Assembly (NCBI RefSeq): GCF_055900595.2
Contig: NZ_CM148325.1
Direction: 5' to 3' (one strand)
DNA: 64,000 nucleotides
In this document: piece after piece, positions 55,322-59,520 of the stretch
Numbering within the stretch: position 1 is the first letter of the stretch
How the letters are laid out: each line of letters begins with the position of its first letter
The notes under the pieces: generated by a model
Database searches by the model: none
What the model was told of the DNA's origin: nothing
The model's input: only the letters and a program-made list of their open reading frames with translations
Position numbers and translations under genes: made by a program

Positions 55322-55660
55322 TGGCAGGTTTTAAAAAATCAAATAAGATATTGTATCTGAAAGAAAAAACAGGATTTTGAGATGCTTTTTTATACCGTTT
55401 TTCAGCGTTTTTAACTGCCTGATTTTATTGAAATCTTTTTTAGTTTTGCAGAAAGGATTTTTTGATCGATTGCTTTAATTTTATACATTCCTGATAACGG
55501 AAATTTTTTACCCGTTGACAGTTTTTATCCTCCGGGGCTATATTTCCAACGCGTCAGCAAAATCTGGCGTCGGGATTGGAACCCCGGATGTTTACGGAGC
55601 GATATGAGACGCGCCCGCGTCTTTTTTCATATCGTTTGCACAGTCACATTCGCGATTTAT

Positions 55661-55737
55661 GGCGGGCTGTGTGGGGGAGCCGAAAGGCTCGCCGGTTTCC
55701 GTACCCGGTAGTTCCAACCCCGCACAGTTCGCCACCA
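55661..55737 (+). other. structured element 1 (tRNA/tmRNA-3-prime-like, ends CCACCA)
   Basis: 77 nt; 13-bp outer stem GGCGGGCTGTGTG / CGCACAGTTCGCC (with G-U pairs) enclosing a GAGCC-GAAA-GGCTC hairpin; shares a 26-nt core with element 2. Confidence 0.4.
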
Positions 55738-55791
55738 TGATGATTGGAACCTGAAGGTGGCGATAATTTTCAAATGTACGGAGTTATCGTT

Positions 55792-56352
55792 ATGCCCACT
55801 CAAATTTCTGTCGACACTCTTCCTGCAATCACCCACAACCAGGTCCCCGTTATTACAACTGAACTTCTGGCGCAGTTATACGGAACAAAAATCAAAAACA
55901 TTTCTGATAACTTTCTGAACAACACGACGCGATTCGTGGTAGGAAAGCATTACTTTAAAATTGAAAAAAACGAATTACGCGAGTTTAAGAACAGACCCGA
56001 AACAATCGGGTTAGTTGGTAAAAATGCCCGCTCCCTTATCCTCTGGACAGAACGTGGCGCAGCCCGCCATGCCAAAATGCTCGAAACCGATCAGGCATGG
56101 GAAGTGTTCGAAAAACTGGAAGACTGTTATTTCAGCCAAAAACAACCACCAGCAACACAAAACTCACCCACCCCAAATGATGGATGCGCATTACTGATCC
56201 ACTTTGATAAACACGGTCAGGTAGAGTTCACAGAAAAAGTCCCCGCCGATGCGATGGTATGCACTCTGGAACGGTTTAAATTTTATCTGGAGCAACACGG
56301 CTGGCTCGTTGCCCGTAAAGAACAACTGGTGGAAAGGCTGATGCAGCTTTAG
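55792..56352 (+). CDS. phage antirepressor-like protein with N-terminal ORF6N/KilA-N-type domain
   Basis: Start taken at the ATG with GGAG RBS; translation ...VPVITTELLAQLYGTKIKNISDNFLNNTTRFVVGKHYFKIEKNELREF... resembles ORF6N-family phage proteins. Confidence 0.6.
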   Translation: MPTQISVDTLPAITHNQVPVITTELLAQLYGTKIKNISDNFLNNTTRFVVGKHYFKIEKNELREFKNRPETIGLVGKNARSLILWTERGAARHAKMLETDQAWEVFEKLEDCYFSQKQPPATQNSPTPNDGCALLIHFDKHGQVEFTEKVPADAMVCTLERFKFYLEQHGWLVARKEQLVERLMQL

Positions 56353-56402
56353 CAGATATAACAAGTGTTTTTTCTCGTATGCACGCGCACATATGAATTA
56401 TT

Positions 56403-56459
56403 GTGGGGCGCATGGGGGAGCCGAAAGGCTCGCCGGTTCAACTCCCGCCAGCTCCACCA
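56403..56459 (+). other. structured element 2 with ssrA (tmRNA) 3-prime-end-like sequence
   Basis: Core tgggggagccgaaaggctcgccggtt shared with element 1; last 25 nt GGTTCAACTCCCGCCAGCTCCACCA match my recollection of the tmRNA 3-prime terminus; followed by a T5 run. Confidence 0.45.
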
Positions 56460-56584
56460 TTTTTGACAGGACTGCAACCGGACATCGACAATAAAAACAG
56501 ATAATTACGGACACTGACCAGACAACAAACAGACCTGAACAAGACAAAAATATACACGTGAAATGCACGTGCACTTTATAAAAA

Positions 56585-56612
56585 CCCCAGATTTCACAGT
56601 CTGGGGTTTTTC
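56585..56612 (+). terminator. rho-independent terminator
   Basis: ccccagatttcacagtctgggg hairpin followed by ttttt. Confidence 0.6.
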
Positions 56613-56665: not shown

Positions 56666-56715
56666 TTGACACTGTTTATCCATACAGTTAAAAATAACAC
56701 TGTATACAAACACAG
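56666..56715 (+). promoter_or_regulatory. promoter with LexA (SOS) box upstream of the dinI-like gene
   Basis: TTGACA at 56666-56671, AT-rich -10 near 56689-56695, CTGT-N8-ACAG box ctgtatacaaacacag at 56700-56715, about 15 bp before the start codon. Confidence 0.65.
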
Positions 56716-56730
56716 TGTAGAGGGATTTTT

Positions 56731-56979
56731 ATGCGTATTGAAATCTGTATCGCTAAAGAAAAATTCAGTAAAATGCCAAAAGGCTCTGTACCTGCTCTAC
56801 AACAGGAAATGTCTAGCCGTATCAGAAAACGATATGACGATGTGGAGGTTATAGTAAAATCCGCCAGTAATGACGGACTGACCATTTTAAGAGCCGTAGA
56901 TAAAGAAAACGCTCAGAAGTTCATACAGGAAACGCTGCAGGAAGTCTGGGAAACTGCTGATGACTGGTTTTTTCACTAA
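56731..56979 (+). CDS. DinI-family DNA-damage-inducible protein (prophage-borne)
   Basis: 82 aa; [16 protein letters not shown]...[14 protein letters not shown] resembles DinI (MRIEV...WESADDWF); GAGGG RBS. Confidence 0.75.
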
Positions 56980-57362
56980 TCAGGACGTCAAATAAATAAC
57001 AACTGTAATTATTCTCTCCAAATTAACAATCTCTGTATACATACTCAGGCGTGTTCACGCATACAACACGCCTTTCTGATATTTAATTGTTTACAGAAAT
57101 ATTGCCGAATAAAAATATAAACCATAGTCTTAAAAAAATAATAATTCCACTATAGCTATCCCAGAACAACCAGTACAAATAATAAAAGACATATCACAGC
57201 AACACTCCACACTGACAGCGCAAAAATAAATGCCGCCTTTGTTATCTTCATATACAAGCAACCTGTCCTGATAATCACCAACTCATGTTTTATTCTTAAC
57301 CATTCGTCACAAATACAACAAAAAATAACAGCAGCAGCACCGATATCACAATATAAGATACA

Positions 57363-57818
57363 TTATTCAACACCTGAATCCCCCGCCGCTTCTCTCCCCT
57401 TTATAAAACGCCCCTTCCGGAATCCAGACCGCTGCAGTGCACGACGAAGATGACCGTATACCGTCTTGTCATTCTGCCCCGTCTCTTCTGTAATCTCCGC
57501 AATACTTAAACCTCTGTAATACCGGTTCAGTACCGCTCTGCGCTCTTCCAGCGTCAACACACCTCCGGCCGCTCTCAGATTCATCATCGACTTATTCAGA
57601 ATACAGCAGGCCTCTCCGGTAAAAAGAATACGAACAATATCTGTATACTCATCATCACAGAATACAAAATAATATCTGAATGACCTGCCTGACTGCACCC
57701 TTCTTCTGTCTGATATGGCATCTTCTATATATCTGATTCGACTGCTTACGGTTCCAAATATCTCTCGCAGGGCTTTTTCAAAATAAATATCTCTCGTCGC
57801 CAGGATTATATCCAGCAT
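57363..57818 (-). CDS. putative HTH regulator with sigma-70 region-4/LuxR-like C-terminus
   Basis: 151 aa; C-terminal LTLEERRAVLNRYYRGLSIAEITEETGQNDKTVYGHLRRALQR fits the region-4 HTH pattern; N-terminal part unassigned. Confidence 0.4.
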   Translation of the reverse strand: MLDIILATRDIYFEKALREIFGTVSSRIRYIEDAISDRRRVQSGRSFRYYFVFCDDEYTDIVRILFTGEACCILNKSMMNLRAAGGVLTLEERRAVLNRYYRGLSIAEITEETGQNDKTVYGHLRRALQRSGFRKGRFIKGREAAGDSGVE

Positions 57819-57879: not shown

Positions 57880-59520
57880 TCAGAACTCAAAATTCACACC
57901 AGCATTCCACGATGCGGATGACCCACCTGCAGCAACTGCAACTTTTCCTGCCACATTCTCTGTGAAACGGTAGCCCACGCCCACCGCAATGGCCTGCTCA
58001 TCACGGTAACCACCAACGGCTGCTGTCGCGTTAAATTTTCCAACACTGTATGGCTGGAAAAGACCGGCCAGTGCCGCGCTCTGGGCTGCACTCTCCCTTA
58101 ACTCCTTCCGGTTCTCTTTAATCTGCTCCTGCATATTATTCATTCTCTCTGTCGCCATCTTCTGCCAGGCTTCCGTCAAATCCAGACGATGACTGTTATT
58201 CCTTATCGCTGCTGTATTTGAGGCTATTGCTGCATCCGTCTGCGCCACCGCTGCCGATGTGACTGCAATAATATCCCTGCTGAGTTCATCACGTACTGCT
58301 GTAACCTGACTGTCAGTATGAGCACGGGCATCTCTGTATACACCGCCTATCTCACCACGCAGACTGTCTCCCTCTGCCTTCAGTTCATCACGTACTGCTG
58401 TGACCTGACTGTCAGTATGAGCACGGGCATCTCTGTATACACCACCTATCTCACCACGCAGACTGTCTCCCTCTGCCTTCAGTTCATCACGTACTGCTGT
58501 GACCTGACTGTCAGTATGAGCACGGGCATCTCTGTATACACCGCCTATCTCACCACGCAGACTGTCTCCCTCTGCCTTCAGTTCATCACGTACTGCTGTG
58601 ACCTGACTGTCAGTATGAGCACGGGCATCTCTGTATACACCACCTATCTCACCACGCAGACTGTCTCCCTCTGCCTTCAGTTCATCACGTACTGCTGTGA
58701 CCTGACTGTCAGTATGAGCACGGGCATCTCTGTATACACCGCCTATCTCACCACGCAGACTGTCTCCCTCTGCCTTCAGTTCATCACGTACTGCTGTGAC
58801 CTGACTGTCAGTATGAGCACGGGCATCTCTGTATACACCACCTATCTCACCACGCAGACTGTCTCCCTGTGATTTCACTTCAACCCCAAGGTTGCGGGTA
58901 CGATTATCCAGCTCCACGACGAATTCTTTAACAGGGACTGTCTGAGCATTTCCGTCAGCCCTTCCGTCAGCAGTGATTCGGCCTGATGAATCCAGAACAA
59001 AATTCTGGCCTTCAACTACATTTTTATACAATGATGACAATCCCGATGTTGTATTACTAATTTTAATAAAATCCTCAGCGGTACCACCAGCATTAACAGC
59101 GGCGATATAATCATCCTTGTTTTCTGGCTTGATTATTTTTTGTAGTGATTCTTTTGTATCAACAATGGACTTTATATCTTCTGCTTTTATATTTCTGATG
59201 TTTTCGGCTTTTAATGCATCTGAGTAGATGGGGTAAGTTAGCAAATCCTGAGCAACAATATGCCTAGCATTCTCAGGAGCTGCTAATATAGCACGCGTAA
59301 TAGAATCATTCGGGACAATACGCCCTGTATTAGCTCCAGTAATAGTATTAATAAGATTAACATCATTACCTTTTGATATTACTGCCGCACCATTATCATA
59401 CAGAGTAACCTCATATCCATCTACATTAAAACTCTCTTCTGCCATAACCCCCACAGAGTAACATAACAGCGCACCGGTAACCGCCATTGCCAATACATTC
59501 TTTGCCATTATAAATTTCAT
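57880..59520 (-). CDS. YadA-like trimeric autotransporter adhesin (Eib-like), prophage-encoded
   Basis: 546 aa; signal peptide; C-terminus [62 protein letters not shown] matches the YadA membrane anchor; coiled-coil stalk with six 33-aa repeats. Confidence 0.8.
58285..58875. repeat. six tandem copies of a 99-bp unit inside the adhesin gene
   Basis: Near-identical 99-bp units encoding [33 protein letters not shown]; successive copies alternate a synonymous ccgcc/ccacc difference, so the array is effectively 3 x 198 bp. Confidence 0.9.

Follow-up and report, generated by a model that had tools for sequence, protein, structure and literature searches.

Why should a prophage carry a dinI-like gene of its own behind LexA operators, and is such a gene a working part of the SOS response or a passenger at the end of the element? 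The question is raised by a gene in a stretch of DNA of 64,000 nucleotides (the window), which a preliminary description had presented as an SOS-controlled, 82-aa DinI-family gene of a prophage with one LexA box between a consensus −35 hexamer and the start codon. LexA-controlled prophage dinI homologues have already been documented in Gifsy-1, Gifsy-2, Gifsy-3 and phiKO2, and experimental LexA control of prophage dinI is known from Salmonella. The gene itself is already annotated in RefSeq, and its homologues occur in dozens of phage records. As a discovery, this ordinary small prophage gene has little weight. What is added here is a corrected anatomy, in which two operators sandwich the −10 element instead of one box standing before the gene; evidence for a module of promoter, operators and coding sequence that is passed on as a whole among phages with otherwise unrelated backbones; and an estimate of the spread of this module among complete E. 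coli genomes. The features on which the discussion is based are collected in Table 1.

Table 1. Features of the DinI-like gene and of the adjoining antirepressor module, with positions in the window.
Feature	Position	Strand	Remarks
a1/b1 target sites	55538-55590		44.6 bits, slightly below gathering score
isrK	55551-55627		Rfam, 72.7 bits (gathering score 50)
C4 antisense RNA	55655-55739		Rfam, 78.9 bits (gathering score 45)
ORF6N antirepressor gene	about 55792-56352		PHROG 2379, E = 3.5e-93
Relic att core GGTTCAACTCCCGCCAGCTCCACCA	56435-56459	+	identical to the last 25 nt of E. coli K-12 tmRNA (ssrA)
Upstream hairpin AAAAACCCCAGA-N8-TCTGGGGTTTTT with T-run	56580-56611	+	terminator scan; inverted repeat, 12/12 complementarity
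−35 hexamer TTGACA (consensus)	56666-56671	+	read from the sequence and promoter scan
LexA box O1 CTGTTTATCCATACAG	56672-56687	.	perfect CTGT-N8-ACAG; 20-mer 56670-56689, 15/20 to consensus
−10-like hexamer AAAAAT	56690-56695	+	18 bp past −35; promoter scan; alternative TAAAAA at 17 bp
LexA box O2 ctgtatacaaacacag (= CTGTATACAAACACAG)	56700-56715	.	perfect CTGT-N8-ACAG; 20-mer 56698-56717, 15/20
Shine-Dalgarno GAGGGA	56720-56725	+	5 nt before ATG; read from the sequence
DinI-like gene, 82 aa	56731-56979	+	ATG at 56731; stop codon 56977-56979, inside the coordinates
3′ hairpin AGGCGTGTT-N9-AACACGCCT, then TTTCTGATATTT	57047-57073	+	RNA fold; 9-bp GC-rich stem

That the open reading frame encodes a DinI-family protein, as first described, is well supported. 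Its translation matches Pfam PF06183 (DinI) with 68.1 bits against a cut-off of 24.2 (E = 8.6e-19) and covers the profile completely (positions 1-63 of 63). It is also matched by PHROG 189, 'RecA filament binding protein DinI' (E = 3e-26), a profile of 151 positions of which only positions 71-148 are aligned. The protein is a small, single-domain one and can be aligned end to end with the structurally solved DinI, residues 1-79 of E. coli DinI (1GHH; 7YWA, in complex with RecA) corresponding to its residues 1-81 (E = 2.9e-12). Cryo-EM of the RecA-DinI complex revealed that the pocket for F203 of RecA is formed on DinI by L13, L21, W71, W77 and F78 and that E24, E69 and D76 face a basic patch (PMC9926225); substitutions at the RecA-contact residues of DinI impair filament stabilisation (PMC9926225). 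In our alignments these positions correspond, in the same order, to M15, L23, W73, W79, F80, E26, E71 and D78 of the window protein, seven of the eight being identical and one a conservative replacement (L to M). Clear protein-level conservation of the coding sequence is also seen among the DinI-like genes of related viral loci.

The relationship to the host protein is that of a paralogue and not of an orthologue, because the window protein scores 68.5 bits against NCBIfam NF007893, the equivalog model for chromosomal DinI, below its cut-off of 111 bits. For the same reason, biochemistry identical to that of chromosomal DinI cannot be assumed. The paralogue status agrees with the RefSeq label 'DinI-like family protein' for the counterpart gene in E. 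coli LH50-c (WP_029400453.1), where a 701-bp stretch containing this gene is 100% identical to the window.

Upstream of the gene, the TTGACA hexamer, the LexA box at 56700-56715, the start codon and the 82-aa frame were all found where the preliminary description had placed them. It had reported a single box, and the second one at 56672-56687 had been missed. In the promoter scan, the arrangement TTGACA-18 bp-AAAAAT matched at 10 of 12 positions and was the top promoter-like site beside the gene, its −10 element being weak (4 of 6 matches). O1 fills 16 of the 18 bases of the spacer between the two hexamers. O2 starts 5 bp beyond the −10, extends over the predicted transcription start and ends 15 bp short of the ATG. 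The boxes are separated by 12 bp, and when both are taken as 20-mers, the 8-bp gap left between them holds the −10 hexamer.

A search of the 64-kb window for the pattern CTGT-N8-ACAG returned exactly two matches, O1 and O2, against a mean of 0.80 per 64 kb expected from dinucleotide shuffles; calculated from this mean, the chance of two matches falling within one given 100-bp stretch is about 1e-6. Every 20-mer of the window was also scored by its count of matches to the published LexA consensus TACTG(TA)5CAGTA (PMC6590174). O1 and O2 tied as the best with 15/20 each, and the next best reached 13/20. Two such sites 12 bp apart right before the start codon of a DinI-family gene are not a matter of chance. 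In sequence, the promoter has what is expected of a member of the LexA regulon: operators that match the consensus, overlap the predicted promoter core and start, and are conserved in orthologous promoters. Control of this promoter by the SOS system through LexA is thus well supported at the sequence level, and the case is stronger than the first description had made it, because two conserved operators bracket the −10. Neither the pattern search nor the 20-mer scoring gave a LexA box for the neighbouring isrK/C4/antirepressor module in the window.

A third, weak LexA-like element, CTGTATACATACTCAG, was noticed at 57033-57048 in the 3′ UTR of the gene, where it overlaps the beginning of the terminator stem. 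It is identical to O2 at 14 of 16 positions. As a 20-mer it scores 13/20 against the consensus, and no other 13/20 site of the window has intact CTG...CAG arms. The 3′ UTR in which it stands is confined to the window's variant, and the element may be nothing of significance.

The two-operator layout was followed in viral relatives. A scan of IMG/VR gave 80 loci encoding relatives with 63-88% identity, and the operators were counted in those loci, the window among them, for which 130 bp or more of upstream sequence was available; these 55 loci represent 29 distinct sequences. Both CTG-N10-CAG boxes, at −59/−60 and −31/−33 from the ATG, are present in 51 of the 55 loci (25 of the 29 distinct sequences); O1 is lost in two (the BP-4795 type, L009 and L010) and neither box is found in two (L012 and L037). 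Across the 29 distinct promoters, the columns of the −35 and −10 hexamers are on average 98% identical and those of the CTGT/ACAG arms 93-97%. Directly before the −35 the mean drops to 67%, as four or more unrelated classes of flank set in there. The similarity among these promoters extends from the −35 to the ATG. The layout is also found in the Citrobacter phage phiNP, whose protein is 59% identical and whose two boxes keep their distances but have other spacer sequences. Past the stop codon the sequence differs between homologue subgroups. Since the upstream flanks and the downstream sequences both differ, the conserved mobile unit consists of promoter, operators and coding sequence.

An 81-bp promoter segment of this unit was found at 90% identity or more in 1202 of 5426 complete E. 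coli genomes (~22%), in up to three places per genome, and almost all of the promoter-segment matches listed overlap an annotated DinI-like gene. In phage records dinI is annotated in many Stx1- and Stx2-converting phages, in BP-4795, cdtI and mEp460, and in the inducible PhiR12 phages. In three viral loci (L025, L026 and L028) the DinI-like frame ends after 28 codons, though the upstream terminator and both LexA boxes are kept. Because boxes are lost or the frame is truncated in such relatives, the cassette is dispensable and undergoes decay in some prophages. The largest homologue group (L029 type, e.g., L029, L031 and L045; 65% protein identity), which is integrase-adjacent, shows a conserved 3′ UTR over the 100 nt after the dinI stop codon. 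Its elements are a GGCTGG...CCAGCC stem and, after it, a terminator hairpin with compensatory variation of the arms between loci; absent from the window, this region is a candidate for a structured 3′ UTR or an att-adjacent element.

The boundaries of the transcription unit could be drawn from the two hairpins. The upstream one has a perfect 12-bp stem with T-runs on both sides and looks like a two-way terminator that would shield the dinI promoter from upstream transcription; it also precedes dinI in PhiR12_1, L025 and L028. The downstream hairpin was overlooked by the simple terminator scan on account of its 9-nt loop. It is probably an intrinsic terminator, which would yield a single-gene transcript of about 380 nt. 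Between the dinI stop codon and this hairpin there is no plus-strand ORF of 20 aa or more, and the only further downstream plus-strand ORF (22 aa, 57087-57155) lies past it. With hairpins on both flanks and no plus-strand ORF before the downstream one, the gene would form a single-gene unit with its own promoter and terminator. The setting is likewise that of a moron, between the att core and the tail-fibre/Eib genes, with the gene missing or truncated in some relatives. Judged from its sequence, the DinI-like unit is a self-contained single-gene phage 'moron', oriented against the neighbouring phage genes. Beyond it, a small and very hydrophobic ORF on the minus strand (57156-57250) converges on dinI; it reads MKITKAAFIFALSVWSVAVICLLLFVLVVLG from an internal ATG and 41 aa from a TTG start. 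It has no annotation in LH50-c and could be a small membrane peptide or nothing.

The prophage setting, also part of the first description, is borne out on both sides, with a YadA/Eib-like gene, tail-fibre genes and gpJ downstream and a truncated ompW and the host yciGFE-trp genes upstream. The gene order in LH50-c, the closest complete genome, is trpEDCBA, yciGFE, truncated ompW, ORF6N antirepressor and DinI-like gene, followed on the opposite strand by a sigma-like HTH gene, a YadA-like (Eib-like) adhesin gene, tail-fibre genes and gpJ. This is the order of a lambdoid prophage inserted in ompW, with the DinI-like gene at its att-proximal, tail-side end. The 25-nt core upstream of the gene gave an Rfam tmRNA match with E = 1.4e-6, below the gathering score, and it is exactly at this core that the homology of ssrA-type phages begins (the end of the PhiR12_1 record, the start of the phiNP record, and CP-1639). 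Since this homology starts at the att core, the dinI cassette ancestrally stood directly beside attP, and the core marks the ancestral outer edge of the cassette. In LH50-c (NZ_CP100500.1, 2340672-2387960) the prophage whose ompW′ end lies next to dinI starts with an integrase adjoining yecE. These ends imply that the chromosome has undergone an inversion or an exchange involving two lambdoid prophages whose attachment sites differ.

The interval from the ompW junction to dinI contains a complete antirepressor module under antisense RNA control (55538-56352). The module resembles the immI region of phage P1. Its order, isrK-C4-antirepressor, is also that of Gifsy-1 downstream of Q, and its first half, from isrK and C4 into the 5′ part of the antirepressor gene, has matches in the antirepressor regions of many Stx phages. 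The ORF6N antirepressor frame, intact in the window, carries a frameshift according to the LH50-c annotation. The stretch 56365-56459, after the antirepressor gene, consists of a second, partial C4-like copy that is 76% identical to 55619-55697 and, fused to it at about 56431-56435, the exact 25-nt 3′ end of tmRNA. This C4-like::ssrA-core junction is rare, being found in only 15 of 5426 complete E. coli genomes. It looks as if an ssrA-type att core had recombined with a tRNA-like phage regulatory RNA gene, the alternative being ordinary inter-prophage recombination. To take both upstream tRNA-like stretches as ssrA fragments was considered and rejected, as 55655-55739 is the C4 antisense RNA by its Rfam match and only 56435-56459 is the ssrA 3′ end.

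On the other side of the gene, a YadA-anchor trimeric autotransporter gene on the minus strand (57880-59520) carries six near-identical 33-aa tandem repeats. It is 1641 bp long in the window and 1410 bp in LH50-c, the number of repeats being different, and a small sigma-70 region-4 HTH gene (57363-57818, minus strand) adjoins it. The phage fragments P-EibC and P-EibA have matches to the dinI region, and from this neighbourhood the YadA-type adhesin would be Eib-like, that is, immunoglobulin-binding.

What would such a unit do? We regard it as very probable that it is an SOS-inducible, self-contained prophage accessory gene (moron) for a paralogue of the host DinI. As long as the lysogen is undamaged, dimers of LexA would occupy O1 and O2, with the −10 sandwiched between them and RNA polymerase excluded. 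After DNA damage, RecA filaments would bring about self-cleavage of LexA, and the promoter would fire, giving a single-gene mRNA of ~380 nt that ends at the downstream hairpin. As the unit is enclosed by hairpin elements, this firing should be independent of the prophage's own repressor. The 82-aa product should bind in the groove of RecA-ssDNA filaments in the manner of host DinI and stabilise them; with a rising dose it would compete with the groove binders UmuD, lambda-type CI and LexA. Host DinI stabilises filaments at stoichiometric levels, and in excess inhibits UmuD cleavage and other RecA functions (PMC6590174). The groove determinants that it uses are the same as those for LexA, UmuD and lambda CI (PMC9926225). 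With two moderately good operators, the promoter would plausibly be repressed more tightly and fire later than that of host dinI, which has one box. LexA binding, the timing of induction, RecA binding and any effects on mutagenesis or prophage induction we infer from known SOS biology. Should the effects of prophage DinI-like proteins on Stx-phage induction or SOS mutagenesis be studied, the exact operator positions are given in Table 1 for mutating.

The hypothesis in the preliminary description, that the gene tunes RecA co-protease activity and hence prophage induction, is an idea that is already in the literature as a speculation, the same induction-limiting suggestion having been made for the dinI of Stx2a phages (PMC8456039). 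Put in its strongest form, the main role of the protein would be to damp the RecA co-protease, thereby delaying or limiting cleavage of the prophage repressor and setting the induction threshold. It is known that the co-protease functions of RecA are inhibited at high DinI concentration (Yasuda 1998/2001, summarised in PMC6590174). A late, high-threshold gene would fit two operators, and with up to three promoter copies per genome the dosage could add up. The LH50-c prophage region whose tail end adjoins the gene also has, in its immunity region, a 690-bp gene for an XRE-family regulator, a size that would fit a CI-type repressor. Nevertheless, strongly induced DinI is already supplied by the host, and non-polar dinI deletions in Gifsy-1 and Gifsy-3 did not significantly alter induction, as reported in the form of data not shown (PMC3121763). 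The latter, which is the only genetic test published, is not decisive for lambda-type phages, because those two prophages use antirepressors and not a cleavable repressor. Moreover, the direction of any effect is uncertain, since DinI stoichiometric with RecA stabilises filaments (Lusetti 2004, cited in PMC6590174). On this balance we think it unlikely that damping of the co-protease is the main role. A more specific proposal, in which a late, high-threshold SOS gene delivers a product pooled in polylysogens that competes with CI-type repressors and UmuD for the RecA groove and so restrains induction and SOS mutagenesis in a dose-dependent way, as a brake common to several prophages, Stx phages included, seems to us distinctly improbable in its entirety.

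The product that matters could also be the RNA. In Klebsiella, the dinI mRNA gives rise to the Hfq-dependent sRNA DinR, which represses ftsZ and has its seed in a species-specific stretch of the 3′ UTR (PMC10907235), and processing of the 3′ end of the present mRNA into an SOS-induced sRNA can be imagined along this line. The window does have a 3′ UTR of roughly 95 nt with a terminator hairpin, and the largest homologue group has a conserved structured 3′ UTR of its own. However, the 3′ UTR of the window is shared with none of the 80 related viral loci and none of the fetched phage records, it matches no Rfam family, and its fold is only modestly better than that of shuffled sequences (z −2.2), mostly owing to the terminator. 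What is clearly conserved, by contrast, is the coding sequence at the protein level. A DinR-like 3′-UTR sRNA was rejected for the window on the variant-specific 3′ UTR, the Rfam result and the fold score, and we consider an RNA as the key product very improbable.

In Gifsy-1, -2 and -3, dinI leads a LexA-controlled antirepressor operon (PMC3121763), and an antirepressor gene adjoins dinI in the window too, so that the LexA promoter might chiefly serve a downstream antirepressor with dinI as the passenger first gene. In the window, however, the antirepressor gene is upstream of dinI, beyond the hairpin at 56580-56611 and within its own isrK/C4 antisense-RNA module. Downstream of dinI no plus-strand ORF of at least 20 aa precedes the terminator hairpin, and the homologues differ completely in sequence there. 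A Gifsy-like downstream antirepressor ORF was accordingly rejected, and we give next to no credit to the gene being a mere leader of this kind. Equally hard to believe is that the boxes are chance or decayed sites and the gene an unexpressed remnant at the edge of a degraded prophage, for although the neighbourhood is mosaic and partly degraded (ORF6N gene frameshifted in LH50-c, ompW truncated) and some homologues have lost boxes or have a truncated ORF, the top two LexA-like sites of 64 kb lie 12 bp apart around the −10, their positions are conserved across diverged promoters, the ORF is intact with its contact residues retained, and the same cassette is found in inducible phages, e.g., PhiR12_1.

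The SOS-inducible moron for a DinI paralogue can now be set beside the known systems. With chromosomal DinI of E. coli (b1061; 1GHH, 7YWA, ~81 aa) the window protein shares the fold family, the RecA-contact residues and the acidic C-terminal helix, and like the K-12 gene it would be monocistronic, with a LexA-controlled promoter and its own terminator. Unlike K-12 dinI, which has the single box ACCTGTATAAATAACCAGTA, the window gene has two operators bracketing the −10 and is prophage-borne beside an att site. One stronger box each was found for K-12 chromosomal dinI, Gifsy-1, a Klebsiella phage and an Aeromonas phage.

The dinI homologues of Gifsy-1, -2 and -3 (STM2621 and relatives) are similarly prophage-borne, with a terminator-like palindrome and a LexA box upstream. 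Their terminators, LexA boxes and DNA damage induction have been described (PMC3121763; PMC8072944), and prophage dinI homologues appear in the list of the Salmonella SOS regulon with 4.6- to 23-fold induction (PMC8072944). They differ from the window gene in having one strong box (17/20) and a place in the nin/Q region instead of two boxes and a place at the att end, and the protein identity is 43%. Gifsy dinI also heads the operon dinI-antirepressor (gfoA/gftA)-irsA (PMC3121763), whereas the window gene appears monocistronic. The din-like gene of phiKO2 is reported to be LexA-regulated (PMC7556043, citing Casjens 2004). By description, this gene and p60 of Serratia phage OS31 resemble the window gene in diverging from tail-fibre genes and in having a LexA box ~14 bp before the start codon (PMC7556043); unlike it, OS31 p60 is described with one box and is translationally coupled to a second gene. 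Tum of phage 186 is LexA-controlled and combines a DinI-like C-terminal half with an N-terminal antirepressor half (PMC3121763), whereas the window protein is the DinI domain alone.

Our literature search returned no functional study of the DinI-like subfamily of E. coli and Stx phages and no description of the double operator, and the SOS-response gene table of a ciprofloxacin study in EHEC includes only chromosomal dinI. It is with this subfamily that the window gene belongs, namely with the dinI genes of Stx1- and Stx2-converting phages, BP-4795, cdtI, mEp460, PhiR12 and phiNP, which show 59-83% protein identity, share the att-proximal position and carry the same promoter-operator module. 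Members of this Stx-phage-type subfamily differ case by case in downstream sequence and neighbours, and BP-4795 is without O1. The conserved two-operator layout of the E. coli/Citrobacter subfamily is only a small addition to these systems, a detail within a known kind.
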